A DNA stretch of 64,000 bases, from the NCBI GenBank assembly GCA_963711835.1, contig CAVQFQ010000025.1, positions 49,442-113,441 of the forward strand. The letters run 5' to 3'. Position numbers and translations under genes: made by a program. Positions 4,615-29,172 of the stretch are shown piece after piece. Numbering within the stretch: the first letter of the stretch is position 1; every line of letters begins with the position of its first letter. The notes under the pieces are model-generated. The model did not search any database. It saw nothing but the letters and a program-made list of their open reading frames with translations, and was not told where the DNA came from. Source of the DNA: an uncultured delta proteobacterium (GTDB lineage: Bacteria > Desulfobacterota > RBG-13-43-22).

Positions 4615-5638
4615 TTATTTAAAATAATCGTCCCGGGCCTTTTTGAGCTGCTGAATATTCTCCAGGGGGGACCGGGGGGCGATCCCGCAGCCCGGGCAAA
4701 GAAAATCCGTGCCGTTTTCGAGGGCCTGGATGGATTCCTTATAGACCTCCTCCGGTGTTCCGCTGAAGAGAGTGGTGGCCGTGGCTACATTTCCAAAGAC
4801 TTTAACTCCGCTTTTGTGGGCGATCTCCACCGCCCGCTTTAGGTCCGCTTTTTCTTCGATGCTAATCCCGACCGCTCCCGTGGCGCACATCAATTCGATA
4901 ATCGGATCGGTATCGGCACAGACGTGTAAAACCACCGGCCCCTTGATGCTGCTGATGATTTCCTTTTCCAAAGGTAAAACAAATTTTTCATAAATTTTTG
5001 GGCTGAGGAGGGCCGGACCGGAAGTGGGTTCGGCAAAGACATAGAAATCGGCCCCCAGGTCAAAGGCGAAATTGGCGGCCGCTATGGCGGCCTGTTTGGT
5101 GACTTCAAAGGTCTTCAGCAGGGCATCCGGTTTTTTAAAGACCCATTTCATGAAGAGCTCGGTCCCCACCAGGTTGGCGGCGCAGGTAAAGGCCCCCTCC
5201 GATTCGCCGAAGATAACCATCGTCTCTCCGACTCTTTCTTCGAGCAGCCTGAAATTTTCTTTATAAACCGGAAAACGACCCCGGCTTAAAAAGTCGGCCG
5301 GGAATGCCAAATTTTCAACGCCTTCGGCATAGGGGTGTTCCTTGATAAAATACTGGCGATCGATCTCCGGCTTGCCCATGCCGCACCCCATAGCCTGGCT
5401 TAAAGGAATGATATCCCAGCCCATGGCCTTGACCCATTCAAAGTGCCCATAGACATGTCCCGCCATGGCCAACTCGGTCATGGCCTTCGGATCGTCATCC
5501 GCCAGGGGCCTCTCATAGCCGCATTTCTTCATAAAATCGACTACGCCATAGGTTGTTGTACGAGCCTACCGGGGTCTTGTCGACCTCTTTCCCCTGCAGT
5601 TGGTTTAAAAACCTTTTTTTTAAACTCAATTCTTCCAT
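4615..5638 (-). CDS. MtaA/CmuA-family (URO-D fold) methyltransferase; one apparent frameshift near 5562
   Basis: AGGAGG then ATG at 5638 gives MEELSLKKRFLNQLQGKEVDKTPVG; removing one base joins it to the 4615..5532 frame. Zn-ligand motifs LHVC and PGCG present. Confidence 0.8.
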
Positions 5639-10517: not shown

Positions 10518-11564
10518 ATGTCGGTCTTCAACTCAAGAGAAAGAGTCCTTCGACTTTTTCGTCGTGAACCGTTGGATACCATGCCCGTGTTTAGTGGGAT
10601 GGGTATGGTTACTATCCAGGCTATTCGTAAGATGGGGATCCCTTTTCCCCAGGTCCATAAATCGGCGGAATACATGGCCCGGGCGGCCTTGACTTCGGCT
10701 GAAATCTTCGGTTTTGATGCCGTGGTTATCCCTTATGATATGTGTACCGTTCCCGAAGCCCTGGGCCGTGGGGTGAGCCTTTATGAGGACTCTGAGGATA
10801 TCCTTTACCCTACCGTTCCAACCAAATGGGAAAGCCTGGAGGCAGTGGAAATTCCCCCGAATTATCTTTCTTTGGGTCGGATGCCTTTGGTGGACAAGGC
10901 ATTCGGTCTTTTAAAGGCCCAGTCGGATCAGGGGTTGGCCATCGGGGGATGGGTCTTGGGACCTTTTACCATGGCCGGACAACTCCTGGAACTGGATTTT
11001 CTCTTAAAAGGAATTAGAAAGGATAAAGAACGTATCGAAGCTTTTCTGGCCACCATGACTGATCTGGTGATTGAAGTAGCACGACATTATCAGGCCCTGG
11101 GACTTGATTATATCACGATCAGGGAAATGGGTTCAGGGACGGATCTCCTTTCCCCGCGTATGTGGACGACCATCATTGAACCCAACCTAAAAAGGCTTTT
11201 TGCCGCTATCCAATCACCCAAGATTCTCCATATCTGCGGTTCCACCGACCTGATTATCGAAATGATGAATAACTGCGGGGCCGATGCCCTTAGTGTGGAT
11301 CAGAAAAACAATTTAGCCTTATCTCGAAAAAAGTTGGGGAATGAAGTGCTGCTTTTAGGTAATTTCGATCCCTACCGTACTCTAGTGCATATGGACCCTT
11401 CTCAGGTGGAGTCGATTATTAAGAAGTGTATCGATGACGGTGCGGATGCGGTCTGGCCAGGATGTGACTTGTGGCCTGATGTGAATGAAGAAAATCTGAA
11501 AGTTGCTTTAAATACCATAAAGACTTATGGTCGCAAGCCGAGTCCCGCAGTCGGAAGGCTCTAA
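10518..11564 (+). CDS. MtaA/CmuA-family (URO-D fold) methyltransferase
   Basis: GPFTMA, ILHICG and WPGCDL motifs; RBS AAGGAG. Confidence 0.88.
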   Translation: MSVFNSRERVLRLFRREPLDTMPVFSGMGMVTIQAIRKMGIPFPQVHKSAEYMARAALTSAEIFGFDAVVIPYDMCTVPEALGRGVSLYEDSEDILYPTVPTKWESLEAVEIPPNYLSLGRMPLVDKAFGLLKAQSDQGLAIGGWVLGPFTMAGQLLELDFLLKGIRKDKERIEAFLATMTDLVIEVARHYQALGLDYITIREMGSGTDLLSPRMWTTIIEPNLKRLFAAIQSPKILHICGSTDLIIEMMNNCGADALSVDQKNNLALSRKKLGNEVLLLGNFDPYRTLVHMDPSQVESIIKKCIDDGADAVWPGCDLWPDVNEENLKVALNTIKTYGRKPSPAVGRL

Positions 11565-11589
11565 TAAATTTTATGAAAGGAGAAAAAAC

Positions 11590-12252
11590 ATGGCAAGCAA
11601 GGACGAATTGCACAAGGTCTTAAAGGAGGGAGTAATTAACTTTCAGGAAGAGGAAGTCAGGGAGGGGGCTCAAAAGATTCTGGCGGAAGGGTACGATCCT
11701 CTGGAAGCGGTCATGGATGGGCTCGCTGCCGGGATGCTGGTCGTGGGAGATCTTTATGAACGCAACGAGTATTTCGTTCCCGAGGTGCTCATGTGCGCCG
11801 ATGCCCTGTATGCCGGGTTGGACATTTTAAGACCCCATATCCCGAAAAAGGAAGGCAATATCAAGGGGCAGGTCGTTATCGGGACCGTTCAGGGGGATGT
11901 CCATGATATCGGTAAGAACCTAATTAAGATGATGTTTGATGTAAGCGGTTTCCAGGTTCATGATCTGGGTCGGGATGTCCCCGTGGAGAAGTTCGTGGCG
12001 GAACAGATGCGCACCGATTCCGAAATCGTCGCCCTGTCGGCGATGATGAGTACAACCATGCTGGGCATGAAAAAAGTAATCCAGATGATCAAGGAAAAAA
12101 ATCCCAACGTAGCCATTATGCTGGGTGGGGCACCGGTTTCTCAGGATGTAACCAAGTTGTTCGGTGCGGATGGCTATGCCGAATCGGCAGGTAATGCCGT
12201 TGAAGAGGCCATAAAAATGATCGGCCGTCTCCGGGAACTTAAGAAGGCGTAA
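11590..12252 (+). CDS. methyltransferase corrinoid protein (MtaC/MtbC-like)
   Basis: YFVPEVLMCA cap domain; GDVHDIGKN base-off/His-on motif; LGGAP; ATG after AAGGAG. Confidence 0.92.
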   Translation: MASKDELHKVLKEGVINFQEEEVREGAQKILAEGYDPLEAVMDGLAAGMLVVGDLYERNEYFVPEVLMCADALYAGLDILRPHIPKKEGNIKGQVVIGTVQGDVHDIGKNLIKMMFDVSGFQVHDLGRDVPVEKFVAEQMRTDSEIVALSAMMSTTMLGMKKVIQMIKEKNPNVAIMLGGAPVSQDVTKLFGADGYAESAGNAVEEAIKMIGRLRELKKA

Positions 12253-12393: not shown

Positions 12394-14451
12394 TTGAAGG
12401 ATAACAACGCGACTGTGATTTTCCAACCTTCTGGCCGCAGAGGGCTTGTTGAGAAAGGGATTTCTTTAATTGAGGCTTCCCGAAGGTTGGGTGTAGACAT
12501 CGAGGCCTTATGTGGGGAGAAAAAGAAGTGCGGCAAATGCAAGATTCGGATTGAAGAGGGTTTTTTTGAAAAGTTCGGTATTCAATCCAGCCTGTCCCAT
12601 ACGTCTCCCTGGTTGGAAGAGGAAGATAAGTATGTCAATGAACAGGAGAAGAACACCGGTTATCGCCTGGGATGTGTTGCCAATGTTGAGGGGGATCTTT
12701 TGGTCTTCGTACCGGAAGAATCCCGGGCCGGCAAACAGGTGGTGAGTAAAAAGGCCCGGGACATCTACATCGAGCATAACCCGGCCGTCAGGATCTATTA
12801 TGTCGAAGTGGACCCGCCTACTTTTGAGGACCCTACCGGCGATTTTGAACGAATCTGTAGGGAGCTGGAAAAACAATATGGGCTTGGCAAGTTAACGATC
12901 GACTTCTTCACCCTTCGGCAACTCCCCATGGCCCTTCGCGATGGAGACTGGAAAGTGACCGTGAGCATCTGGAATGACCTTGAGATCATCCGGGTGCGGC
13001 CCGGCAAGGCCGAGGCTGCTTATGGAATCGCCATTGATGTGGGGACTACCACCGTGGCCGGGTATTTTTGCAATCTCAACACCATGGAGGTTGTAGATAC
13101 CGTCACCCTGATGAATCCTCAGTGTAAATACGGGGAAGACGTCATGGCCCGAATTACCTGTCATATGACGAACCCGGACGGCCTCAAACGGATGAGCGAC
13201 GACATTATCGAGGGCCTGAACTGGATCATCGGTGAGGCCGTTAAGAACACCTTTCCTCCCAAGAAAAAGGTAAAAAGATCTGACGGGGAGGAAGGCCCTG
13301 AGGAATGGGTGGAGGTGCCGGAAGAAGGGAAGACCTATCTCCGGCTTACCTTGGATGATGTCGAGGATGTAACCATTGGCGGGAATACAGCCATGCATCA
13401 TATCCTGCTCCAGCTCAACCCGGAATTTGTGGGGATGGCCCCCTTTCCTCCGGTGATTCATCACAGCCTGGATGTCAAGACCCGGGATATCGGTCTCAAT
13501 ATTAACCGCGGATCCTATGTCTTCGTCCTGCCAAATGAGGCAGGTTTCGTGGGGGCCGATAATGTGGGGGTGCTTATCGCAGAGGAACCCTATAAGTCCG
13601 ATGAGACCCAGCTTATCATTGATATCGGGACAAACGGCGAGCTGGTTCTGGGCAACAGGCACAAGCTGATATCCTCCTCATGTGCTACGGGCCCGGCCCT
13701 GGAAGGGGCCCAGCTTCAATTCGGCATGCGGGCCGCCCCGGGGGCCATTGAACGGATCAAAATTGATCCGGAGACCCATGAAGTGGATTACAAGGTGATC
13801 GGGCGGGATGCCTGGCGGCAGTACTCCGAACCCAAGGAGATGAAGACCAAGGGAATCTGCGGATCGGGGATCCTGGATGTCTTGGCCGAACTTTATCGTT
13901 CCGGGGTTATTATGAAGAGCGGTGTGTTCAGTAAGAATCAAAAATCGAACCGCTCCCGTATTAATCCGGAAACCAAGCAACCTGAATTTGTGATTGCCTG
14001 GGCAAATGAGACTAGTATCGGGCGGGATGTGGTAATTTCCCAAAAGGATATCAGACAAATCCAACTGGCCAAAGGAGCCCTATATTGCGGATGTAAATTG
14101 ATGATGCGGCGTATGGGTATTGATAAGGTGGAGATAGTAAAGATTGCCGGGGCTTTTGGTACCCACGTAGACCGAGAAAAGGCCTTGATCATGGGTCTAT
14201 TCCCGGATTGTGCGATCGACAAGATTGTTTCCATAGGAAACGCCGCCGGGGATGGAGCTAGGGCGGCCCTGTTGAACCGGGAAAAACGGATTGAGGCCAA
14301 CTGGGTCTCCCGCAATGTGGAATATATTGAATTGACGGTGGAAAAGGATTTCCAGGTTCAATTTATGGAGGCCATGCAGATACCCCATATGAAGGATGCC
14401 TTTCTCCATTTGGAAGGATTGGTAAGAGCTGAAATTCTTCACCAGAAATAA
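12394..14451 (+). CDS. RACE/RamA-type ATP-dependent corrinoid reductive activator (2Fe-2S + ASKHA/DUF4445)
   Basis: CGEKKKCGKC...RLGC ferredoxin; DVGTTT, DIGTNGE, SCATGPALEG, GICGSG, GNAAGDGA. Confidence 0.9.
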   Translation: MKDNNATVIFQPSGRRGLVEKGISLIEASRRLGVDIEALCGEKKKCGKCKIRIEEGFFEKFGIQSSLSHTSPWLEEEDKYVNEQEKNTGYRLGCVANVEGDLLVFVPEESRAGKQVVSKKARDIYIEHNPAVRIYYVEVDPPTFEDPTGDFERICRELEKQYGLGKLTIDFFTLRQLPMALRDGDWKVTVSIWNDLEIIRVRPGKAEAAYGIAIDVGTTTVAGYFCNLNTMEVVDTVTLMNPQCKYGEDVMARITCHMTNPDGLKRMSDDIIEGLNWIIGEAVKNTFPPKKKVKRSDGEEGPEEWVEVPEEGKTYLRLTLDDVEDVTIGGNTAMHHILLQLNPEFVGMAPFPPVIHHSLDVKTRDIGLNINRGSYVFVLPNEAGFVGADNVGVLIAEEPYKSDETQLIIDIGTNGELVLGNRHKLISSSCATGPALEGAQLQFGMRAAPGAIERIKIDPETHEVDYKVIGRDAWRQYSEPKEMKTKGICGSGILDVLAELYRSGVIMKSGVFSKNQKSNRSRINPETKQPEFVIAWANETSIGRDVVISQKDIRQIQLAKGALYCGCKLMMRRMGIDKVEIVKIAGAFGTHVDREKALIMGLFPDCAIDKIVSIGNAAGDGARAALLNREKRIEANWVSRNVEYIELTVEKDFQVQFMEAMQIPHMKDAFLHLEGLVRAEILHQK

Positions 14452-14834: not shown

Positions 14835-16106
14835 ATGATTTCAAAACCTATCCATCTGGTAGTCGTTCATAGTGGAGATTCAAATTGAAAGCCCTGCGAG
14901 CGGGCGCTGGATGCGGCTCAAAAGATAAAGGATCGTTTTGGCAATGCCATCCGATTCGAAGCCTTTACCATTGCTTCGGAAGAAGGAAAGGCCTTTAAAG
15001 TCACCACCTCAACCAATGTCTTTGTAAATGGGGAACTGCTTCCCCTAAACACCTGGCTGGAGGAAGAGAAATTCGTTCAGTATATTCAGGAAGCTATCGG
15101 AGGAAAGGAAAAAGCAGCCGGAAAGATTGAGGTACACGAAAAGTTCGACGTGGTGATCATTGGCGGCGGCCCGGCCGGATTGACGGCAGGTATCTATTGT
15201 GCTCGCGCCAGGCTGAAAACCATCTTATTGGAAGGGGCCAGCCTTGGTGGTCAGGTGGCTATGACGGACAAGATTGAAAATTACCCGGGGTACACCGGCG
15301 AAAGCGGCCCTGAATTAATTAATACTATGGAAAGGCAGGCCAGGAAGTTCGGTCTTGAGATACAAACGTTCAAAACGGTGACCCAGATCATGGGAGACGG
15401 GTTGCTCAAAGAAGTCTATGCCGGAAATGATCTTTATCCCTGCGAGGCGCTTATCTTAGCCACCGGCCTTAAGACATCGGAATTAAATCTTGAAAAAGAA
15501 GATTATTTCAGGGGCAAAGGCCTGTCGTATTGTGCCGTTTGTGATGCTAATTTTTTTGTCGGAAAGAAAGTTGTGGTCGTCGGGGGCGGGGACACCGCGG
15601 CTGAAGATGCCTTGTACCTGTCCAAATTTGCCTCACAGGTTTTTATTGTCCACAGAAGGGACGAGTTGCGGGCGGCAAAAATATTACAAGAAGCCGTTTC
15701 CTGCAATGAAAAGATCACCGTCTTGTGGAGCCATGTCGTCCAGAGTCTGGTTGGGGACACGGTGTTGGAGGGGCTGGTTTTGAGGGATCTGAAGACCGGA
15801 AACGAAACCAGGCTGGATGTGGAGGGTTTTTTCGTTGCCATTGGATCTCGTCCCTACACCGGCTTCATTAAAAACCTGGTGGCTATGGATGAACAAGGGT
15901 TTGTCCTGGTAAATTCCAGGATGGAGACTTCCTATCCAGGTATCTTTGCGGCTGGTGATATCAGAGACACCCCTTTGAGACAGGTATCCACAGCCGTTGG
16001 CGATGGGGCCATTGCGGCCATATCGGCTGAAAAATTTGTCAGAGACGTGAAGGATAAAGGCGAGTGTAAACTACCCGAATCAAAAACGGCCTCCTTTCCT
16101 TTTTGA
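14835..16106 (+). CDS. putative selenoprotein: UxxC thioredoxin-like domain fused to thioredoxin reductase (423 aa)
   Basis: ATG 14835 is in frame with the TrxR ORF; only interruption is TGA 14886 in SN-U-KPC; TrxR motifs GGGPAG, YCAVCD, GGGDTA, FAAGD. Confidence 0.8.
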
Positions 16107-16109
16107 TTC

Positions 16110-17057
16110 ATGGTTCTGAAAAACAGAATGCCTCCAGTAACTATGTATATCATAGGCGGTTTCCTTGGTTCCGGGAAGACCACTTTTTTGCAAACCCTGT
16201 TGGATTGGCAGGGCGATCTTTCCTCCACCGCTGTTATGGTTAACGAATTTGGGGAAATCTCGGTTGACGGGATGCTCCTGGATTCGAAAGGTAGCCAGCT
16301 TGTGGAATTGGCCAGCGGATGCATCTGCTGCTCCATGAGAGGGGAATTTATCAAGAGTTTGGAGAATGTTTTAGATAATTTTACGATTACCAGAATTTTT
16401 GTTGAGACAACGGGCGTGGCCGATACCTTGGAACTTATTTCGGTTCTGAAAGAATCCAAGGTCTCGGAACGTGTTGCCCTGAAAAAGATTATTTGCGTCC
16501 TGGATGCCGACCTCTGGCCGGGAAGAGATAATTTTGGGCTGGTTTTTTTAAATCAAATAAAGGCTGCCGATCTGATCCTTCTCAATAAAGTCGATCTCGT
16601 CGAAAAAGGTCAGGTGGTTCCCTTTATGGAAGAGATACAAAAGATAAATCCCGACAGTCTGGTCATCCCTACTTATTACTGCAGGATAGACCTGGATCTG
16701 CTTTTGGATGGGGAAGAACGAGATCGCCCCCTGCGCCTCGACACAGTGAATGGGCTGCCAGACTTTAATTCTAATCTGGAGAAGCCCATCGGTTTTGCGA
16801 CTTTTCTTTTTCAGGAGGAGGGCTCGCTCTCCGAGGCTTGTTTCAAAGAGTTCCTTGATAAAATCCCTCCCCACATTTTTCGTATTAAGGGGCAAGTAAG
16901 GTTTTCGGGAAAGGCTTTTCTGCTGAACCATGTCGGAGGCAGGAGCCAATGGATCGAATCTGAAAACAAAAGTGGCTCCCAATTGGTCTTTATCGGCTGG
17001 AATATGGATACGGAGGCCCTTAAGGCCGATCTGGCAGCTTGCCTGGAGGGCAAGTGA
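16110..17057 (+). CDS. CobW/COG0523-family GTPase metallochaperone
   Basis: GFLGSGKTT, NEFG, GCICC, ETTG, NKVD, RIKG motifs. Confidence 0.88.
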   Translation: MVLKNRMPPVTMYIIGGFLGSGKTTFLQTLLDWQGDLSSTAVMVNEFGEISVDGMLLDSKGSQLVELASGCICCSMRGEFIKSLENVLDNFTITRIFVETTGVADTLELISVLKESKVSERVALKKIICVLDADLWPGRDNFGLVFLNQIKAADLILLNKVDLVEKGQVVPFMEEIQKINPDSLVIPTYYCRIDLDLLLDGEERDRPLRLDTVNGLPDFNSNLEKPIGFATFLFQEEGSLSEACFKEFLDKIPPHIFRIKGQVRFSGKAFLLNHVGGRSQWIESENKSGSQLVFIGWNMDTEALKADLAACLEGK

Positions 17058-17111
17058 TCATGAAGGAAGGACTTTCCAAAAGTGTTTGGATATCAGAAAG
17101 GGGATTGGGCC

Positions 17112-17549
17112 GTGGATAAGGAGTCTATTCAAAAAGGTATGCTGGCCTTAGCGCAGGAGGGATTTCGCTGCAGCCAAATTATGCTGGCCTTGGGACTCAA
17201 ACGCCAGGGCAAGGAAAACCCGGATCTGATTCGAGCCATGGGCGGTTTGATCGTCGGGGTCGGCTACAGCGGCAAGATTTGCGGTGCCCTCACCGGGGGT
17301 ACTTGCCTGATCACTTTGTATGCCGGTAGGGGGCGGGCTGATGAGAAAGAGCACCCTAAGCTGTGGCCCATGGTCCAGGAATTCGTTGAATGGTTTGAGT
17401 CGGAGATAGGGGAAAACAAGGGAATCATTGACTGTGATGGGATCCTGGAAAGAGCCGGTGTAGCTAAACCTTCCAGCGAGACCTGCGGACCGATCGTACT
17501 TAAAGCCTACATAAAGGCCGTTTCCATTTTAGAGGCAAACGGACTATAG
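17112..17549 (+). CDS. C-GCAxxG-C-C family putative redox protein
   Basis: CSQ...ICGALTGG...C...C pattern; probable GTG start at 17112. Confidence 0.75.
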   Translation: MDKESIQKGMLALAQEGFRCSQIMLALGLKRQGKENPDLIRAMGGLIVGVGYSGKICGALTGGTCLITLYAGRGRADEKEHPKLWPMVQEFVEWFESEIGENKGIIDCDGILERAGVAKPSSETCGPIVLKAYIKAVSILEANGL

Positions 17550-17599
17550 CAAAAAAAATACCATAAATTAAACTCGAAAAAGAAAGGGGGCGAGAGAAG

Positions 17600-17818
17600 G
17601 TGGCGAACGAAATAAAGACAAGCAAGTTGCAGATTATTGCCAATACGGGGAACTGAATACCGATTATTAAAATAGCCCTGGAAGGGACTGAAGGGGTTGA
17701 AAAGGCCGAGGTCGATATTCAATATGCCACCGTATGGCATGATCCGGCTAAGGTTTCTGCTGATCAGTTGGCCGCCATAGTAACCAAAGCAGGAAAAGAT
17801 TGTTTTCCTGTAAGTTAA
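17600..17818 (+). CDS. putative HMA/CopZ-fold selenoprotein with a single Sec (72 aa)
   Basis: GTG after purine-rich RBS; MANEIKTSKLQIIANTGN-U-IPIIKIALEGTEGVEKAEVDIQYATVWHDPAKVSADQLAAIVTKAG; TGA 17654; fills the operon gap. Confidence 0.75.
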
Positions 17819-17842
17819 GACAAGCCTGAAAGGAGGGCAAAC

Positions 17843-18892
17843 ATGAGCATTCCAAAAGACAAAATGACCCCCAAGGAAAGAATGGGCTCCCTACTTCAAG
17901 GAAAACCCATTGACAGAGTCCCTTGCATTCCGGTTATCCTTAACGGTTGTGCCAGAGTGGCAGGCTATACCATCAAGGAAATGACCCTGGACGGAGAGAA
18001 GTTCGGTAAGGCTAATGTAGCCACTTATAAAAAATACGGCCATGATATGATTTGTCTGCTTGATGCCACGGGTACCACAGCCGAGGCAGCGGGAACCAAA
18101 CTGAATTATCCGGATGAGATGCCTGCTTTTGTGGAAGACCCCTTGATCAAGTCCAGGGACGATTTAAAAAAGCTGCGTCCACTGGACCCCACCAAGGATG
18201 GCCGCCTCAACAATTACCTGATAGCCACGGAGTATTGCGTTTCAGAAGTAGGCAACGAGGTGTTTGTCGGGACCCTCTTTGCCGGCGCCTTTACCACCGC
18301 AGCCTGTTTGAGAGGCACTGAGGCCCTTTTGAAAGATATCTATAAAGATAAAGAAATGGTCCATCATCTGGTGAGATGGGCAACCGACGTCACCATACCT
18401 TTTTTAGATGAAGTCATCAAAAGAGGGGGCGTTCCGTTTTTGTGTGAGCCGGTAGGTACGGGAAGCATCCTGAATCCCAAAGCCTTTGCTGAATTTGTAG
18501 AACCGTATCAGAAAGAATTAAACGATTTTGTAAAATCTAAAGGTCTCCCCGCGCTAAATCATATCTGTGGGAATTCCCTGCCGATCATGGAACCTTGGCT
18601 CCGGACCGGCCCGACGGTCATTAGTGTGGATCGGGTGGATATCGGGGAGATCTCAAAAAAGTTTGGAGATAAGGTGGGATTGTGTGGGAATGTCAATCCC
18701 GGGAAGACGCTCTTTATGGGTTCCCCGGAAGCGGTCGATGCCGAGGTAAAGGATATTATGGAAAAAGCTGGGAAAAATCCCTGCGGTTTTGTGCTGGCTT
18801 CGGGGTGCGAAGTGCCCAGTGAAACGCCTCCGGAGAATATCTTTGCCATGATGGATGCCGCGAGAAAATATGGGCAACATCCATTACCTTAG
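17843..18892 (+). CDS. URO-D/MtaA-CmuA family methyltransferase
   Basis: MTPKER...DRVP, GAFTTA, NHICGN, SGCEV motifs. Confidence 0.88.
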   Translation: MSIPKDKMTPKERMGSLLQGKPIDRVPCIPVILNGCARVAGYTIKEMTLDGEKFGKANVATYKKYGHDMICLLDATGTTAEAAGTKLNYPDEMPAFVEDPLIKSRDDLKKLRPLDPTKDGRLNNYLIATEYCVSEVGNEVFVGTLFAGAFTTAACLRGTEALLKDIYKDKEMVHHLVRWATDVTIPFLDEVIKRGGVPFLCEPVGTGSILNPKAFAEFVEPYQKELNDFVKSKGLPALNHICGNSLPIMEPWLRTGPTVISVDRVDIGEISKKFGDKVGLCGNVNPGKTLFMGSPEAVDAEVKDIMEKAGKNPCGFVLASGCEVPSETPPENIFAMMDAARKYGQHPLP

Positions 18893-18908
18893 ATAGGAGG
18901 TGTAACTT

Positions 18909-19139
18909 ATGGAAGACATAAAAGAGATTATCATTAAGATCCCCAGCTTAACTTGAACTACTTGAGAGGTGATGGTTAACGCGGCTCTGGATGAGTCCGT
19001 CGGCGTTCTTGAGTATGAAACAAGTATTGCAACACTGCAAACACGGGTGAAATTTAATTCAAATCAAACCAACGAAGAGACCTTGATGGAAAATATCAAG
19101 AAGAAAACAGGTTATAGTAACCTATACGTACTCTCATAA
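18909..19139 (+). CDS. putative HMA/CopZ-fold selenoprotein with UxxU motif (76 aa)
   Basis: GGAGG RBS, ATG 18909; MEDIKEIIIKIPSLT-U-TT-U-EVMVNAALDESVGVLEY...KKTGY; TGA at 18954 and 18963 replace both Cys of the MxCxxC motif. Confidence 0.82.
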
Positions 19140-19147
19140 GGTTCGTG

Positions 19148-19201
19148 TCCTTTCTGGGGGGCGGAGATTTCTATCCTATCCCCAGAAAGGATAAATTTTT
19201 C
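19148..19201 (+). terminator. probable intrinsic terminator closing the selenoprotein operon
   Basis: TCCTTTCTGGGG...CCCCAGAAAGGA 12-bp stem followed by a T-rich tract. Confidence 0.6.
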
Positions 19202-19474
19202 AATCAGGGTCGTTCAATTCCCTTTCGTCATTCCACTATTAAATCCCTTCAGGAAGAATTTTTTTTCATATCGGCATTAATATTTCAACCAAGTTATAAG
19301 AATGAGCTAGAAGAAAAAATATATTATCGGAAATATCTATTTAAAAATAAATTTGCATCCAAATTTTCTATTTGATCTATCGCCTTAACCATAATAATAG
19401 AACAACATTTAGATTCCTAGTTCAGCACAATCTGTATGCGCAATTAAGTTGAATCAAAATAGAGAGGCTGAGAA

Positions 19475-20083
19475 ATGAAAGAGAAAAGGATCATTGATTG
19501 TCGAGGCCTTGCCTGCCCTCAACCGGTAATTCAAACTAAGGAGGCCCTTGAAAAGTTCTCAGCCGGCTGTCTTCAAGTTATAGCCGATAATGATTCCTCC
19601 TGCATCAATGTCAGGCGTTACGCCGAGAGCCAGGGGCATCTGGTTCAAGTTGAGGAAAAGGAAGGAAATTATTTTTTGGAGATTGAGAAAAGAAATGCTT
19701 CAATTGCCTCGGATAGGTTAACCGAAGTTTCCCAGGAAGCTCAGGAAAAGAGCCTTGTGATTTATATTGCTTCCGAAGGGGTTGGAAGGGGAGATGATGA
19801 ATTGGGCCGTATTCTAATGGCCGCCTACCTGGATACCCTCTCCCAATTTGCCCGAGAGATCTCTCACCTGATTTTTATGAATAGTGGGGTCAAGTTGGCA
19901 GTGGAGGGCTCTTCAGTTCTTGAGCAAATAGAAAATCTGAAGAGCATGGGTGTCGAGGTGCTGAGCTGCGGTACCTGCTTGAATTTTTTCGGGGTTATTG
20001 AAAAACTTCGAGTCGGCTCTGTTTCCAATATGATGATTATACAGGAGATCCTTTCTAAGGCGAAAAAGGTCTTGAGCCCATAA
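19475..20083 (+). CDS. yedF: selenium metabolism protein YedF (TusA-like + DsrE-like)
   Basis: IDCRGLACPQPV N-terminus; GRGDDELGRILM; MNSGVKL; SCGTCL; VGSVSNM. Confidence 0.85.
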   Translation: MKEKRIIDCRGLACPQPVIQTKEALEKFSAGCLQVIADNDSSCINVRRYAESQGHLVQVEEKEGNYFLEIEKRNASIASDRLTEVSQEAQEKSLVIYIASEGVGRGDDELGRILMAAYLDTLSQFAREISHLIFMNSGVKLAVEGSSVLEQIENLKSMGVEVLSCGTCLNFFGVIEKLRVGSVSNMMIIQEILSKAKKVLSP

Positions 20084-20206
20084 AAAATAAACCGGTGAAT
20101 TTTCACCTACTGAGGCGGATATCTTATTTTTCAAATATAAAATAATACCTCCCGATCGATCATGTCGGTTAAACGGATTGTTTGTACCTGTGATGAAAGG
20201 AGCTGC

Positions 20207-20746
20207 GTGGAAAACAAAAGGCATTCCCGTAATAAGATAAAGCCAGCCTCACTGATTTCACTGGTCCAAAGAGCCCTCGAATTGGGGGCGAATGAAGCCA
20301 AGCCTTTGAGGACGGATCAGGTGGTTTTTGATCCTCGTGCCCATCTCAAGTGCCGCTTTGGCTGCGGGCGCTGGGGCAAGTATTGGACCTGCCCACCCCA
20401 TCTTGCTCTCCCGCAGTCCACTTTTGATAAAGCCTTTGCTCGATACCAGACGGCTTTGGTTATCAAAACCAGCGATCCCAAATCCGGGCAAGAGGTGGCC
20501 CTATCTTTGGAAAAAGAGGCCATGTTACAATATGGCTGCTCCTTTGCCCTGGCCCTGGCCCTCTGTGTTCAGTGTGAAGAGTGCGCTTATCCGGAGCCCT
20601 GCCGTTACCCTCACCTGGCCAGGCCGGCCTTGGATGCCTTAGGCGTAGACGTGGGCAAGACCCTGGAGCCTCTGGGCTTTAAGGTGGAATTCGACAAGGA
20701 AGGCCTGCTCCTTCCCGTCTGGTACACCATGGTCTTGCTGGATTAA
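20207..20746 (+). CDS. DUF2284-like Cys-rich putative metal-binding protein
   Basis: KCRFGC...WTCPP and CVQCEEC...PCRYP...ARP..DALGVDV; GTG after AGGAG. Confidence 0.7.
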   Translation: MENKRHSRNKIKPASLISLVQRALELGANEAKPLRTDQVVFDPRAHLKCRFGCGRWGKYWTCPPHLALPQSTFDKAFARYQTALVIKTSDPKSGQEVALSLEKEAMLQYGCSFALALALCVQCEECAYPEPCRYPHLARPALDALGVDVGKTLEPLGFKVEFDKEGLLLPVWYTMVLLD

Positions 20747-23855: not shown

Positions 23856-24803
23856 GTGTTCCAGATAGAAACAGCACAAAAAGTGTGCCAGGTCGGAGGG
23901 GTGAAGTTCGGGGGGCAACCTGGAGAATATCCTACCGTGGTCTGTTCCTCCATCTTCCAAAAAGGAGACAAATTATTTCTGGGAAAAAGGCAGGAGGGCT
24001 TTGATGAAAAGCGGGCCGCGGAACTCCTTAAGACCCAGGACAAGCTCTGGCAGGAGACCGGGGTGCCGGGCATGGCCGATATCGTGGCCAATACCGGCAG
24101 TGAATTTAAGACTTATATTGATTTTGTGACCTCAGTGAGTAATATGCCCTTTTGTATCGATGCCTGGACTATGAAACCCAAACTGGAGGGGGCGGCCTAT
24201 TGTGCCGAAAAAGGCCTGCTGGACCGGATGTTTTATAACAGCCTGACGGTCTGGGAAAAGGATTTGGAGACCGAAATCAAGGAAATTGCCCAAATCGGCG
24301 TAAAACACGTGCTCCTGGTGGCCTTTGATATGGCGGATCAATTACCCAGTGGGAGAATCGCCGGCACCCAAAAACTACTTGATGCCATTGATAAGGTGGG
24401 GGCATCCTTTGAAAGCCTATTTGTTGACACTTCGGTCATGAACGGACCGGCCACGGCTTTTTGTGGCCTGGCCAACCGTCTGATTAAGGAAAAATGGGGC
24501 TTCCCCACCGGAAGCGCTCCGAGTAACGGATCGTATATGTGGAAAAAGGCCCGGGAAATGTGGGGGTTCACGGGCTGGTCGGCGGTCGATGCCGGTTTGG
24601 AGTCCCTGGCCTCCTTTCTATACCATGACATCATCTTTTCCGGTCCCATGGCCGGTGCCCCGAGAATCTTTCCGGCCGTGGCCATGGCCGATGCCTTTTT
24701 AGCCACGGCGGTTTTTGCCGAGAGCAAGCGGTTGCCCCAGGATCCGAACCATCCGCTATTTAAGCTCTTTCCGGAATTTGTGGAGCAACTCAAAAAGATT
24801 TAA
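23856..24803 (+). CDS. MtrH-like pterin:corrinoid methyltransferase
   Basis: FGGQPGEYPTV..SIF signature, FCID, YNSL, VDTSV, PTGSAPSN. Confidence 0.85.
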   Translation: MFQIETAQKVCQVGGVKFGGQPGEYPTVVCSSIFQKGDKLFLGKRQEGFDEKRAAELLKTQDKLWQETGVPGMADIVANTGSEFKTYIDFVTSVSNMPFCIDAWTMKPKLEGAAYCAEKGLLDRMFYNSLTVWEKDLETEIKEIAQIGVKHVLLVAFDMADQLPSGRIAGTQKLLDAIDKVGASFESLFVDTSVMNGPATAFCGLANRLIKEKWGFPTGSAPSNGSYMWKKAREMWGFTGWSAVDAGLESLASFLYHDIIFSGPMAGAPRIFPAVAMADAFLATAVFAESKRLPQDPNHPLFKLFPEFVEQLKKI

Positions 24804-24900
24804 TAAGCTAAGGTTCCAATTCTAAACCGGCAGCGGGTGGCCGGCCGAGGCCTTTCGCCGAGGGAATCCCCGGAAATAAAAAGAAAAAGGAGGGACAGGC

Positions 24901-25581
24901 ATGGCTTCAGAAGAAAGAACAAAAGAACTAATGAAAGCCCTTCAGGAGGCGGTAGTCAACTACGATGAGGACAAGGTCAAGGAATTGTCTCAGGCCGTTA
25001 TCGATGAAGGGGCGGATCCCTTTACGGCTACCATGGACGGTTTGGCTGAAGGGATGATTCAGGTTGGGGATCTTTATAATAAAAAGGAATACTTCGTCCC
25101 CGAGCTCCTGATGTGCGCCGATGCCCTGTATGCAGGACTGGACCTTCTGAAGCCCGCCATTGAGGCTTCCGGGAGAAAAAGCGAATCCAAGGGTTCTATC
25201 GTGCTCGGGGTGGTCGAAGGCGATGTCCACGACATCGGTAAAAACCTGATCAAGATGATGTTTGAGGTGGCCGGCTGGACCGTTTATGACTTGGGTAAAG
25301 ACGTGCCTTTGGACCGGTTCTTGGAGGAACAGTTGAGGACGGACTCGGATATCGTCGGGCTTTCGGCCTTGATGACTACCAGCATGATCAGTATGCCCGA
25401 GATCGTCAAGAAGCTGAAGGAGAAAAATCCCAAGGTTCGGGTTATGTTGGGCGGCGCCCCCATTACCCCGGAAGTGGTGGAAAAGTACGGCGCCGACGGC
25501 TACGCCCGGGATGCCGGGACGGCCGTAGACGAGGCCATTAAATTGATTAAGATGCTCCGGGAAGAAGAAAAGGCAAAGTAA
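24901..25581 (+). CDS. methyltransferase corrinoid protein
   Basis: YFVPELLMCA, GDVHDIGKN, SALMTT, LGGAP. Confidence 0.92.
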   Translation: MASEERTKELMKALQEAVVNYDEDKVKELSQAVIDEGADPFTATMDGLAEGMIQVGDLYNKKEYFVPELLMCADALYAGLDLLKPAIEASGRKSESKGSIVLGVVEGDVHDIGKNLIKMMFEVAGWTVYDLGKDVPLDRFLEEQLRTDSDIVGLSALMTTSMISMPEIVKKLKEKNPKVRVMLGGAPITPEVVEKYGADGYARDAGTAVDEAIKLIKMLREEEKAK

Positions 25582-25719
25582 ATCAAAGCCTTTTCAAGGG
25601 TGATTTCCCTTTTCCTTTGAGCGATCCGGCGGGCAAAAAATAACACCCTTTTTTGTTTTCTCAGTCTTACTCTGAGCTGAGCATTAACTCGTTATCGGGA
25701 TAGAGAAAGGAGCCGTATT

Positions 25720-28700
25720 ATGCCGAGTGGGGAAATTGAAAAAGTTTTAGTCATTTTTCAACCCTCAGGATGTCGAGGGCACATCGAACCAGGAAAGACC
25801 CTCAAACAGGCCTCCGTGGCCTTAGGCGTGGATATTGAAGGGGTCTGCGGGGAACAGGCTATTTGCGGGACCTGCAAGGTTCGGGTCGAGGAAGGGGAAT
25901 TCGAAAAATACGGTATCCGCTCCACCCGAGATCATCTTTCCGCTATGGGGCCTTCGGAGAGAAAATTCTTTAACCTGCGGCAGGTCGACGAGGGCTACCG
26001 GCTGGCCTGTCAGGCCCAGATCCTGGGCGATGTGGTTATCTTCGTCCCGGAAGAAAGCCGGATGGGTAAGCAGGTGGTCCGAAAGGCGCCTACCGCGCGG
26101 CCGATTGAAATCAAACCGGCGGTCAGAAAATATCCGGTCGAGCTGATCAAAGCCACCCTGGAAGACAATATCGGTGATTGGGAACGATTGACGGCGGCCC
26201 TGGAGGAAAAATACGGCCTGAAGCAGTTGACCTTAGACTACGAAGTGCTCATGGATTTACAGACCATCGTCCGCCAGGGGGAGTGGAAGATTACGGTTAC
26301 GGTCTGGCAGGGCCGGGAAGTGATCCGGGTCGAACCCGGAATCAAGGAAAAGGGCTATGGGCTGGCGGTCGATGTGGGCACTTCCACGGTAGCCGGTTAC
26401 TTGTGCGATATAAGCGATGGGACGGTGATCGCCACCGCCTCCATGATGAATCCCCAGATTGTCTATGGGGAAGATGTCATGTCCCGGATCAGTTACACCA
26501 TGACCAATTCGGACGGCTTGGAGATCCTGAACCAGGCTATCGTGGACGGTCTGAACGGTATCGTGGCCGAAGTAGCGGAAACCGCCGGTATCAAGCGCCA
26601 GGATATCCTGGATATGAGCATCGTAGGCAACACCTGTATGCACCATATCTATTTGAACATCGATCCCAAGTACATCGGGCGTTCTCCCTTTGCGCCGAGT
26701 TTACACCATTCGATGGATATCAAGGCCCGTGATTTCGGCTTCAAGATTCCCCAGGAAAAAGAAAGGGAAGACAAAGGGAAGTATGCCCCCTGCCGGGTGG
26801 AATGTCCGGCGGGGGTTAACGTCGATGATTTCTTATATCTCATGGCGCAGCATAAGTTTAAAGAGGCCCTGGAACTGGTCCGATTATCCTATCCCTTTTC
26901 CGGCGTCTGCGGTCGGGTCTGTACCCATCCCTGCGAAGGGATATGCGAAAGGGGTAAAGTGGATGCGCCCATTTCCATCCGGGCGGCCCATCGTTTTCTG
27001 GCTGATTATGAATTGACCCAGGGAAGGGAAAAGGCCGCTCCCGTGGAATTGAAAAAGGCCTCCCGGATCGCTATCGTAGGTTCCGGGCCGGCCGGTCTGG
27101 CCTGTGCTTATGATTTGATTCGCCGGGGACACCCTATAACCGTTTTTGAGGCCAAGGCCCAGGCCGGAGGTATGCTGCGCTACGGCATTCCGGAATACCG
27201 GCTGCCGAAAGGTATTCTGGAAGATGAAATCCATTACCTGGAAGAGTTGGGTGTGGAGATAAAGACCAATACCGCCGTGAAAAACGTGGAGGATATCTTC
27301 AACGAGGGATATCAAGCTATCTTCCTGGCGACCGGGACCTGGAAAAGCCAGAAATTGAACCTACCGGGGGAAGACAGCCCGGATGTAATCTATGCCCTCG
27401 ATTTTCTAAGAGAGGTGAATTCAGGCGAGAAAGTCGGACTGGGCGGCCGGGTGGCGGTTATCGGCGGAGGCAGTGTGGCTGTGGATGCAGCCCGGCTATC
27501 CAAGCGTCTGGGCGCCCGGGAAATTCACCTGATCTGTCTGGAATCCACCGACCTGACCTGCCGGGATCGGATGCCGGCCCAGGATCTGGAAATCGAACAA
27601 GCCCGCCAAGAAGGGATTATTATCCATCCTTCCCTGGGCGTTGGGAAAATTATCTCCGAAGAGGGCAAGGTCAAGGCGGTCGACACAGTCGGTTGTGTGT
27701 CGGTTTATGATGCCGAAGGCCGGTTTGACCCGCAGTTTTCCAAAGAGCCCGCTCCCTCGATTTCCGTAGATACCGTGATTGTGGCCGTAGGCCAGAGGGC
27801 CGAGGATAACGTTTTCTCGGAAATCAATCGGCACTCTTCGGGGATCATCCAGGTTGATGAAATTACTCTCGAAACAAACCAAAAGGGGGTTTTTGCCGGT
27901 GGTGATGTAGCTACCGGCCCCGCCAATGTGATCAAGGCCGTTCGGGCCGGAAAAGAGGCCGCTATTTCCATCGAGCTTTATCTGGCCGGGATGGATATGA
28001 AGGAAGACCGGCCTAAACCTTTAAAGGCTGTCGAAGATGTACCCAAAGAAGGGGTCAGGAAAGAAGCCCGCCAGGAGGTTCCGGAACGGCCCCTGGATCA
28101 GCGTCAGGGTTTTGATGAGGTGGAATTGGGCTTTGAGGAATCCCAGGTGGTTCAAGAATCGCTCCGCTGTCTCCACTGCGCGGTGTATGCCCAGAAGGAC
28201 GTCTCCGATGGTGAAGAGGCCCGGGGCTGGGGTATCAAAATCGCCCCCGGGGCGTACATCCATTGTCTGCCGATTGAGGCCGGTTTTGTAGGGGCCGATA
28301 ATGTGGGCGTGCTGATTGCCGAAGCACCCTATAACCAGGATAGCCTCGAGCTGGTTATCGATATCGGCACCAACGGGGAAATCATTCTGGGCAACCGGAA
28401 GAGGTTGATTTCCGCTTCCTGCGCCACGGGACCGGCCTTTGAGGGGGCCCAGTTGCGTTTCGGTATGCGGGCCGCCCCTGGGGCCATTGAAAAAATTGAA
28501 ATTGATAAAGAGACCCAGGAGGTCCGTTTCAAGGTTATTGACGAGACCCGCTGGAATACCGAAATGAAACCGGAAGAGATAAAGGCCAAGGGCATCTGCG
28601 GCTCCGGTATCATTGATGCCATCCCGCAACTCTTCTTAGCCGGTATTATTGATAAAACGGGAAAGTTCGTTAAAGAACTCCAGCATCCCCGGTTGCGGCA

Positions 28701-29172
28701 AGTGGAGGGTCAATACGAATACATTATTGCCTGGGCCCACGAGACCTCCATCGGCCAGGATGTGGTCGTCTGCCAGGATGATATCCGGGCCATCCAGTTG
28801 GGTAAGGCCGCCATGTACGCCGGCAGCAAAATCCTGATGGAGACCCTGGGGATTGAAAAGCTGGACAAGGTGATTTTAGCCGGGGCCTTCGGAAGTTACA
28901 TTGACAAGCTGTCGGCCGCGATTCTGGGGATGTTCCCGGATTGTGATCCCAAAAATGTGTATTCGGTAGGCAATGCGGCCGGGGACGGGGCTCGGATGGC
29001 TTTGCTCAATGTCGATAAACGGAGAGAGGCCGATGAGTATGCCAGAAAGGTGGAGTATATCGAGCTCACCATCTCCCCGAGATTCGAAAAGATATTTGCC
29101 CAATCGATGTGGTTTCCCCATATGAAGGACCCTTTTCCGAACTTGCAGGAGTATCTCCCGGCCAAGAAATAG
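25720..29172 (+). CDS. RACE/ASKHA corrinoid activator with an internal GltD/NfnB-like FAD/Fe-S oxidoreductase module
   Basis: RACE motifs as in 12394, split by APCRVECPAG...CGRVCTHPCEGIC...GSGPAG...GGMLRYGIP...GGGSVA...FAGGD...RCLHC. Confidence 0.88.
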   Translation: MPSGEIEKVLVIFQPSGCRGHIEPGKTLKQASVALGVDIEGVCGEQAICGTCKVRVEEGEFEKYGIRSTRDHLSAMGPSERKFFNLRQVDEGYRLACQAQILGDVVIFVPEESRMGKQVVRKAPTARPIEIKPAVRKYPVELIKATLEDNIGDWERLTAALEEKYGLKQLTLDYEVLMDLQTIVRQGEWKITVTVWQGREVIRVEPGIKEKGYGLAVDVGTSTVAGYLCDISDGTVIATASMMNPQIVYGEDVMSRISYTMTNSDGLEILNQAIVDGLNGIVAEVAETAGIKRQDILDMSIVGNTCMHHIYLNIDPKYIGRSPFAPSLHHSMDIKARDFGFKIPQEKEREDKGKYAPCRVECPAGVNVDDFLYLMAQHKFKEALELVRLSYPFSGVCGRVCTHPCEGICERGKVDAPISIRAAHRFLADYELTQGREKAAPVELKKASRIAIVGSGPAGLACAYDLIRRGHPITVFEAKAQAGGMLRYGIPEYRLPKGILEDEIHYLEELGVEIKTNTAVKNVEDIFNEGYQAIFLATGTWKSQKLNLPGEDSPDVIYALDFLREVNSGEKVGLGGRVAVIGGGSVAVDAARLSKRLGAREIHLICLESTDLTCRDRMPAQDLEIEQARQEGIIIHPSLGVGKIISEEGKVKAVDTVGCVSVYDAEGRFDPQFSKEPAPSISVDTVIVAVGQRAEDNVFSEINRHSSGIIQVDEITLETNQKGVFAGGDVATGPANVIKAVRAGKEAAISIELYLAGMDMKEDRPKPLKAVEDVPKEGVRKEARQEVPERPLDQRQGFDEVELGFEESQVVQESLRCLHCAVYAQKDVSDGEEARGWGIKIAPGAYIHCLPIEAGFVGADNVGVLIAEAPYNQDSLELVIDIGTNGEIILGNRKRLISASCATGPAFEGAQLRFGMRAAPGAIEKIEIDKETQEVRFKVIDETRWNTEMKPEEIKAKGICGSGIIDAIPQLFLAGIIDKTGKFVKELQHPRLRQVEGQYEYIIAWAHETSIGQDVVVCQDDIRAIQLGKAAMYAGSKILMETLGIEKLDKVILAGAFGSYIDKLSAAILGMFPDCDPKNVYSVGNAAGDGARMALLNVDKRREADEYARKVEYIELTISPRFEKIFAQSMWFPHMKDPFPNLQEYLPAKK

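Follow-up and report, generated by a model that had tools for sequence, protein, structure and literature searches.

Can a reading frame that is interrupted by two TGA codons be a working gene and, if so, what would its product do? The question is raised by a 76-codon frame at positions 18909-19139 of a 64,000-nucleotide stretch of DNA (hereafter the window; contig CAVQFQ010000025.1, assembly GCA_963711835.1) from an uncultured delta proteobacterium. A sequence-only reading of the window had taken this frame to encode a CopZ-like protein of the HMA fold in which the codons of both ligand cysteines are replaced by TGA. Our analysis indicates that 18909-19139 is a genuine gene, missed by annotation, whose two TGAs very likely encode selenocysteine (Sec, U). 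The context that tells most about its function consists of a conserved MtaA-like methyltransferase gene that directly precedes it and, ahead of that, another hidden gene for an HMA-like selenoprotein; the earlier reading mentioned neither. Tentatively, and with somewhat less than even confidence, we take the UxxU protein, with its TGAs read as Sec through one hairpin, to be a diselenol carrier for the neighbouring Mlp-type methyltransferase.

The frame, as read from the sequence and translated, opens with an ATG at 18909 and closes with a TAA at 19137-19139, and its product (P0001) reads MEDIKEIIIKIPSLTUTTUEVMVNAALDES...TGYSNLYVLS. The GGAGG ribosome-binding site and the terminator that had been described on either side of the gene are both present. 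The former lies eight nucleotides before the ATG (Table 1); the latter is a 15-bp hairpin at 19146-19193, followed by AAUUUUU, which folds at -29.5 kcal/mol (z = -4.74), with 0 of 200 shuffles as good. This terminator was found by direct folding, and its loop of more than 8 nucleotides is beyond the limit of a simple pattern scan. Because an in-frame TAA stands at 18903-18905, two codons upstream of the ATG, P0001 has no longer amino terminus and no leader peptide; its start lies three residues ahead of strand 1, and it has no signal peptide. Conventional gene calling yields only a short open reading frame (ORF) here, of 55 residues from Met22.

Homologous DNA was available from four loci: the window; G005/L014/L030, of which G005 is a genome from the same family; and two metagenome contigs, L032 and L033. 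Their proteins (P0001-P0004) are 68-74% identical, and TGA occupies both codons in all four. A fifth variant, about 94% identical, occurs in contigs of the sediment run X1 and also keeps both TGAs: read from loose contig ends, it runs ATC AAA TGT CCC AGC TTG ACC TGA ACA ACC TGA GGA (IKCPSLT, then TGA), and four codons near the TGAs differ synonymously from the window. The contigs of runs X2-X4 leave the motif uncovered. The earlier argument that two nonsense mutations would hardly strike exactly the two metal ligands is therefore strengthened, since both TGAs recur at the same codons in 4/4 loci and in the X1 variant, and the homologues keep UxxU, neither stopping at a TGA nor reverting. In addition, when the four loci are compared two by two over the 16 codons that precede or separate the TGAs, 47 codon pairs are identical, 35 differ synonymously and 14 non-synonymously, from which it follows that this stretch is translated. 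Towards the carboxy terminus, the X1 relative carries a 6-nucleotide insertion (two codons; window position 19122) that leaves the frame intact.

The protein databases present the family in a different guise. In a database of 5.8 billion clusters, 21 of 78 candidates are relatives, and all 21 are fragments of 52-59 residues that start just past the motif. In a library of 1.84 billion representatives, the only full-length family members are P0030 and P0072, with tryptophan at both positions; we infer that these tryptophans are TGAs read as Trp by a gene caller. The entry for the first gene of the cassette described below (P0176) has the same signature, and the window DNA of that gene has TGA. 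Tryptophan at the TGA sites of P0030, P0072 and P0176 suggests that TGA was translated as Trp in part of the public gene calls, and is a possible signature for finding hidden selenoproteins. A scan of a genome collection, of low sensitivity since one of its two patterns was unable to match TGA, returned the G005 contig and one unrelated CxxC HMA protein only, and a metagenome scan returned at least two loci. When 401 genomes from the phylum and 21 from the order were searched with a profile, the family was seen only in the window genome (G000) and in G005. Neither the 21 clusters of the 5.8-billion set nor the representative library yielded a close orthologue of Cys form, and the nearest cysteine homologues (P0166 and others, about 33% identical, with CxxC aligned to positions 16 and 19) are related only at the level of the HMA superfamily. 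The UxxU family appears to be Sec-obligate.

How might two UGA codons be decoded as Sec? A hairpin resembling a bacterial selenocysteine insertion sequence (SECIS), ACG(C)GGCUC-UGGAU-GAGUC-CGU, follows them. Its loop had been placed 22 nucleotides past the second TGA, and so it is (18988-18992), which is 31 nucleotides past the first. The 15-nucleotide core is identical in 4/4 loci, and the stem reaches 7-8 pairs in two different ways, as GUGGCUC/GAGUCAC in G005 and L032 and as CG(N)GGCUC/GAGUCCG in the window and L033. The window hairpin folds at -9.8 kcal/mol (z = -1.97). Synonymous differences are suppressed across the hairpin codons (4 of 42 codon pairs, compared with 35 of 96 upstream and 82 of 264 downstream), as expected from RNA constraint. 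The bSECISearch model reportedly asks for a UGA-to-stem-loop distance of about 16-37 nucleotides and a G in the apical loop; the hairpin, with its G-containing loop UGGAU, lies 22 and 31 nucleotides past the two UGAs. Since no second conserved hairpin was found in the four loci, a single element most likely serves both codons. A long-range pairing of ACUACUUGAG with CUUGAGUA in the minimum-energy structure of the window was considered and rejected, as the other loci lack it and have just the short hairpin in common. The HMA gene of L032 itself ends in TGA (661-666), so that within one short gene two TGAs would be decoded as Sec and a third as stop; the choice there is presumably decided by distance from the hairpin.

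The organism is equipped for such decoding. Its genome encodes a tRNA-Sec (75 bits, anticodon TCA), SelA, SelB (384.7 bits) and SelD (388.7 bits), and the last has one in-frame TGA, so that the first enzyme of selenium use is itself a selenoprotein in this genome. The SelD gene carries a small hairpin with a G-rich loop 16 nucleotides past its UGA, comparable to that of the HMA gene. This gene is L064 (contig C6 of G000, 87193-88110, minus strand), with the TGA motif AAGUASKLGPGD. A second match to the tRNA-Sec model (contig C12, 41783-41859, minus strand) scores 50.2 bits against a gathering score of 47, spans only 77 nucleotides and is probably an ordinary tRNA. Global reassignment of TGA (code 4 or 25) was rejected because TGA terminates 11 of the 54 open frames of at least 200 residues in the window, including the thioredoxin reductase and CobW genes. 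Judged from the sequence, the two TGAs of P0001 are very likely read as Sec.

The fold assigned to the protein was borne out in both tests applied. With Sec replaced by Cys for scoring with hidden Markov models, three of the four proteins pass the gathering score of Pfam HMA (PF00403; 24.8 bits), namely P0001 (29.6), P0002 (34.8) and P0003 (35.4), while P0004 (18.8) fails. An AF2 model of P0001, made from a 22-row alignment and with a pLDDT of 89.3, has the order beta-alpha-beta-beta-alpha-beta (strands 4-10, 33-39, 44-50 and 73-75; helices 17-29 and 56-67), and lets loop 1 end with U16 and helix 1 include U19 in its opening turn, the positions taken by the CxxC ligands in HMA domains. The top Foldseek match in the PDB is MerP (1osd; TMq 0.87), and all those listed among the 18 matches with E <= 0.001 are HMA domains. 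The predicted fold of P0001 is thus that of an HMA domain with TGA at both ligand cysteines. The label 'CopZ-like' holds for the likeness of fold and fails at the level of family, since P0001 scores far below the NCBIfam cut-offs of every related model: 28.1 bits for CopZ (cut-off 91), 32.4 for MerP (92.55), 46.1 for MerTP (180) and 35.8 for NF041115 (95). For P0001-P0004 and the WxxW relative P0030 the best match is MerTP (39.7-53.8 bits), with MerP and NF041115 next.

NF041115 (UxxU_metal_bind) deserves closer comparison, since review tables list it as a 'putative mercuric reductase' with UxxU and two Sec (PMC9312934, PMC13188914, in the parts available). The idea of a UxxU HMA site is therefore not new. 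Like NF041115, P0001 is a single HMA-type domain with Sec possible at both ligands and predicted soft-metal binding. However, P0001 is not a member of that family. The other three UxxU proteins score 35.6-45.4 bits with its model, and the P0001 locus 20.7 bits in a six-frame search, whereas the amino-terminal HMA domains of ordinary CopA proteins reach 60-70 bits. The model exceeds its cut-off in only 5 of the 401 genomes of the phylum; the top seven matches (L044-L048 above the cut-off, L049-L050 just below) are all CxxC proteins, five of them with a hydrophobic leader, which is a feature of the matches inspected and no stated criterion of the family. Unlike NF041115, a known UxxU family of exported MerP-like proteins, P0001 is leaderless, is without a close Cys form and is tied to Mlp. 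In the same way it shares with MerP/MerTP (TIGR02052, NF033556) and CopZ (NF033795, NF033794) the fold and the position of the binding motif at loop 1/helix 1, and differs from them in having Sec in place of Cys and no signal peptide, mer operon or cop operon. P0001 represents a new family, and a cytoplasmic one, of a kind of protein already known. No NCBIfam model covers the two small selenoprotein families of the window; the available text of the 2026 review (PMC13188914) mentions neither HMA, PF00403 nor metallochaperones, and the accessible main text of the Olavius paper describes no UxxU protein. The UxxU family and its pairing with Mlp were not found in the catalogues checked, although an earlier published description may exist.

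What the protein might do is suggested by its neighbours. The UxxU gene is the last of a conserved three-gene cassette that starts with an HMA-like gene with one TGA (17600-17818) and continues with the MtaA/Mlp-type methyltransferase, which is the immediate upstream neighbour of the UxxU gene in 4/4 loci. The methyltransferase aligns to MtaA of M. mazei (4ay7) across HICGN and GC (SGC), and the aligned H, C and C residues, which we take to be the MtaA zinc ligands, correspond to H240, C242 and C322, invariant in 7/7 homologues. The product of the first gene (P0174) reads ...LQIIANTGNUIPIIKIALEG... and is weakly HMA-like (17.7 bits, under the Pfam gathering score). The gene is kept with its TGA in G005, and of its eight database relatives seven are fragments that start past the TGA and one, P0176, has W there. 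No fusion of HMA and Mlp was seen in the representative library, where the long top matches are generic multi-HMA CxxC proteins.

The cassette closes an operon-like run on the forward strand that comprises a further Mlp gene (10518-11564), a corrinoid protein, RACo, DUF6951, thioredoxin reductase, CobW, the C-GCAxxG-C-C protein and the three cassette genes, and ends at the terminator. In holding several Mlp genes with a His-Cys-Cys zinc sphere, a corrinoid protein and a RACE/RACo-type activase, together with selenium-linked genes in a Sec-making anaerobe, the window resembles the mlp clusters described by Kountz and Balskus (PMC10418091, available text). Most of those clusters are from Firmicutes, and the text, which sorts Mlps into the groups Mlp1, Mlp2 and Mlp3, mentions no HMA-type partners such as those of the window. 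A second corrinoid module (23856-29172, forward strand) consists of an MtrH-like methyltransferase, a corrinoid protein and a 1150-residue RACo-type activase, the last an unusual fusion with an inserted Fer4_20 and a pyridine-nucleotide-disulfide oxidoreductase part.

Table 1. Features of the window that bear on the UxxU gene, with positions counted from the first nucleotide of the window
Feature	Position	Strand	Evidence
Gene for UxxU HMA-fold protein, 76 residues, predicted cytoplasmic (P0001)	18909..19139	+	Translation, Pfam HMA, AF2 model, Foldseek, homologues
Shine-Dalgarno GGAGG, 8 nt 5' of ATG	18896..18900	+	Read from sequence
First in-frame TGA, codon 16, predicted Sec	18954..18956	+	TGA in 4/4 DNA homologues and X1 variant
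Second in-frame TGA, codon 19, predicted Sec	18963..18965	+	TGA in 4/4 DNA homologues and X1 variant
SECIS-like hairpin, core GGCUC-UGGAU-GAGUC, extended by ACG/CGU with bulged C; loop 18988-18992	18979..19000	+	Core identical in 4/4 loci
Intrinsic-terminator-like hairpin and U run	19146..19201	+	Fold energy versus shuffles
MtaA/Mlp-type corrinoid methyltransferase (URO-D family), directly upstream	17843..18892	+	Pfam URO-D, 237 bits
Second hidden HMA-like selenoprotein gene, GTG start, one TGA (17654-17656), motif TGNU (P0174)	17600..17818	+	Conserved TGA, relatives
C-GCAxxG-C-C protein, DVU_1555 family	17082..17549	+	NF045669, 161.5 bits (cut-off 103)
CobW/COG0523-type metallochaperone GTPase	16110..17057	+	Pfam cobW, CobW_C
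Thioredoxin-disulfide reductase	15150..16106	+	TIGR01292, 357 bits (cut-off 343)
RACo-type reductive activase of corrinoid enzymes	12394..14451	+	Pfam RACo_C_ter, Raco_middle, RACo_linker, Fer2
Corrinoid (B12-binding) protein	11527..12252	+	Pfam B12-binding, B12-binding_2
Second MtaA/Mlp-like methyltransferase	10518..11564	+	Pfam URO-D, 215.7 bits
URO-D gene	4615-5532	-	Pfam
YedF (selenium-metabolism TusA/DsrE-like), past terminator	19475..20083	+	TIGR03527, 218.5 bits (cut-off 110)
DUF2284 predicted metal-binding protein	20162..20746	+	Pfam DUF2284, 100.6 bits; partial MbdU and ArsM/DUF2284 selenoprotein matches

In G005 and L033 the cassette has other surroundings. In G005 the order is DUF2284, thioredoxin, ArsR, a DsrE-like selenoprotein, thioredoxin reductase, the cassette, a Grx-like CxxC protein and an ArsM/AhpD-type multi-Sec methyltransferase, and the same Grx-like and ArsM-like genes follow the cassette in L033. 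The ArsM-like S-adenosylmethionine (SAM) methyltransferase genes of L030 (6791-7950, forward strand) and L033 (2287-3229, forward strand) have an in-frame TGA in the motif SWFRUEGG; the G005 frame continues into an AhpD-like part with CEPU, and resembles the ArsM/AhpD multi-Sec type in the accessible part of the review table. The DsrE-like ORF of L030 (2928-3300, forward strand), with TGA in the motif AVGVUPPCANARQ, is probably a selenoprotein; the ORF preceding it (from 2586) ends at a TGA after ...KASGA. With DUF2284 and ArsM/AhpD-type genes as neighbours among the homologous loci, the cassette recalls the 'organometallic' selenoprotein neighbourhoods (ArsM selenoproteins, MbdU, ArsM/DUF2284, ArsM/AhpD), in which, as far as the available sources describe them, small Sec proteins and methyltransferases occur with Trx/TrxR-type reductants. 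It differs from them in that the HMA proteins fall below the cut-off of those NCBIfam models and the methyltransferase is of the corrinoid type and not of the SAM type.

If P0001 is a diselenol carrier for the adjacent Mlp, the following scheme can be envisaged. The reduced UxxU site would hold a soft chalcogen or metalloid, most likely selenium (as selenide or methylselenol, through Se-Se bonds), and would pass this cargo to the Mlp zinc site or take it from there, while the corrinoid protein accepts or donates a methyl group. The thioredoxin reductase system would then re-reduce the diselenide, and the freed selenium may feed YedF and SelD. Selenium is favoured as cargo because the zinc chemistry of Mlp fits S or Se nucleophiles and because the YedF gene adjoins. 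It is favoured also because, in the available text of PMC10418091, a His-Cys-Cys sphere marks S- or Se-methyltransferases, ClMlp2 catalyses methyl transfer from methylcobalamin to selenide, and mlp clusters are linked to methyl-selenium metabolism and track with Sec use. The reductant required by the scheme has candidates as well, in that thioredoxin reductase is encoded in the window and in G005, and G005 and L033 have the Grx-like CxxC gene downstream of the cassette.

Several observations weigh against the carrier reading. P0001 is a selenoprotein by prediction, and both the insertion of Sec and the cargo are inferred. The hairpin energy is only modestly better than that of shuffles (z = -1.3 to -2.1 across loci), and no Rfam family matches the hairpin in a search of 17500-19300 at E <= 10, which gave one chance match to RsmY (11.5 bits). 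Four other genomes encode more distant Mlp homologues (35-46% identical), none of them with an HMA-like ORF up to 1.5 kb away, and the 12 kb examined in G005 hold no corrinoid protein or RACo. The YedF and DUF2284 genes of the window sit beyond the terminator and may belong to another transcription unit. No HMA or heavy-metal partner is mentioned in the accessible text of PMC10418091. A route for selenium salvage that itself needs three Sec looks paradoxical, though SelD is also a selenoprotein here. Finally, the ArsM-like selenoproteins downstream in 2/4 loci (G005, L033), with ArsR in G005, point to arsenic, and the best family-level sequence matches, MerTP and MerP, point to mercury. A UxxU site may indeed bind Hg, Cu or As tightly, or form a diselenide, and each of these elements and outcomes calls for a reading of its own.

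Arsenic is the first of these. Vicinal dithiols and diselenols are strong binders of As(III), and the UxxU protein could be an arsenic chaperone whose diselenol binds As(III) or methyl-As(III) and hands it on to the enzymes of an arsenic island that add or remove methyl groups (ArsM-like selenoproteins, Mlp), possibly for a corrinoid-dependent anaerobic demethylation of methylarsenicals. The setting of the G005 cassette speaks for this, flanked as it is by ArsR, the DsrE-like selenoprotein, thioredoxin reductase and the Grx-like protein, and the ArsM/AhpD-type methyltransferase (SWFRUEGG, CEPU), and so do the Grx-like and ArsM-like genes that L033 shares; DUF2284, which is fused to ArsM in NF041536, is present in both the window and G005. 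However, no ArsM, ArsR or ars transporter occurs among the annotated neighbours of the window cassette, and we know of no HMA domain that acts as an arsenic chaperone. Moreover, the Zn(His-Cys-Cys) site of Mlp activates S or Se nucleophiles, which makes it a poor fit to arsenic methyl chemistry (PMC10418091, available text). An arsenic function therefore seems unlikely to us, on balance.

On the mercury reading, P0001 would be a MerP-like diselenol that captures Hg(II) or methylmercury in the cytoplasm, so as to shield selenol, zinc and corrinoid enzymes or else to supply the corrinoid methyltransferase system with CH3Hg+ or Hg(II) to be demethylated or methylated. It draws on the ranking of MerTP, then MerP and NF041115, as top NCBIfam matches of P0001-P0004 and P0030, on MerP 1osd as the top structural match, and on the selenoprotein forms of MerT, HgcA and HgcB in the accessible table of a review (PMC13188914). 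Set against this, the MerTP and MerP scores are far under the cut-offs (180 and 92.55), a MerP-like fold is common to any HMA domain, and the four loci, in their annotated parts, show no mer or hgcAB genes. We consider this reading quite improbable.

Two more general functions can be given little credence. In the first, P0001 and its HMA-like sister would be ordinary metallochaperones that, together with the CobW GTPase, supply the Mlp zinc site or the corrinoid system with Zn, Co or Cu or buffer these metals there. HMA proteins are classic Cu/Zn chaperones, Mlp needs zinc and a CobW/COG0523 GTPase gene lies two genes upstream, but CobW is missing from the 12 kb examined in G005, and routine delivery of Zn or Cu would explain neither the obligate Sec at both ligands and the single-Sec paralogue nor the failure to find a close Cys-form orthologue. 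In the second, which we hold to be just as doubtful, the UxxU motif would cycle between diselenide and diselenol with no bound element, as a very low-potential oxidoreductase reduced by thioredoxin reductase. Thioredoxin reductase and Trx/Grx-like genes do recur among the loci; yet we know of no HMA oxidoreductase, and the AF2 model and Foldseek point to an HMA fold and not to a thioredoxin-like one, the UxxU of Prx-like redox selenoproteins notwithstanding (PMC9312934, in the part available).

That there is no recoding at all, the TGAs being true stops or the gene decaying so that the product would be limited to the 55-residue ORF from Met22 if there is one at all, is highly improbable: although gene callers report the short ORF only and the full-length product is a prediction, the codons upstream of and between the TGAs are under purifying selection (47/35/14), the strong ribosome-binding site serves the upstream ATG whereas the internal ATG is only 2 nucleotides from a GAGG, the short product would, by the model, lose strand 1 and the binding loop, and both TGAs are kept in five variants, with the Sec machinery and the conserved hairpin present.

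The diselenol carrier for the neighbouring Mlp, with selenium as its favoured cargo, is thus the reading that we carry forward. For annotation, the gene means that a double-Sec family and the single-Sec family paired with it are systematically cut short, with 21/21 and 7/8 of their database relatives being fragments. For decoding, two UGAs 9 nucleotides apart and apparently served by one SECIS hairpin offer a natural case for the spacing tolerance of bacterial Sec decoding. For the mlp clusters, whose proposed function is in methyl-sulfur or methyl-selenium metabolism (PMC10418091, available text), the cassette provides a concrete partner candidate for one Mlp, and it connects methyl transfer by corrinoids with the binding of soft elements by Sec in anaerobes of sediment and groundwater, where the cycling of Se, As and Hg matters.

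A bolder form of the carrier proposal, which we put forward as a long shot, is that the selenolates of two HMA carriers partner the corrinoid-dependent zinc methyltransferase directly, as a shuttle that would hold a soft element on selenium (Se as Se-Se adducts, methylarsenic or methylmercury) while a methyl group is removed or added. Such a shuttle would be Sec-obligate, as the failure to find a Cys-form orthologue suggests. If true, this would give methyl-selenium salvage its first carrier system, or else supply the anaerobic demethylase route that is missing for arsenic or mercury in methylated form.

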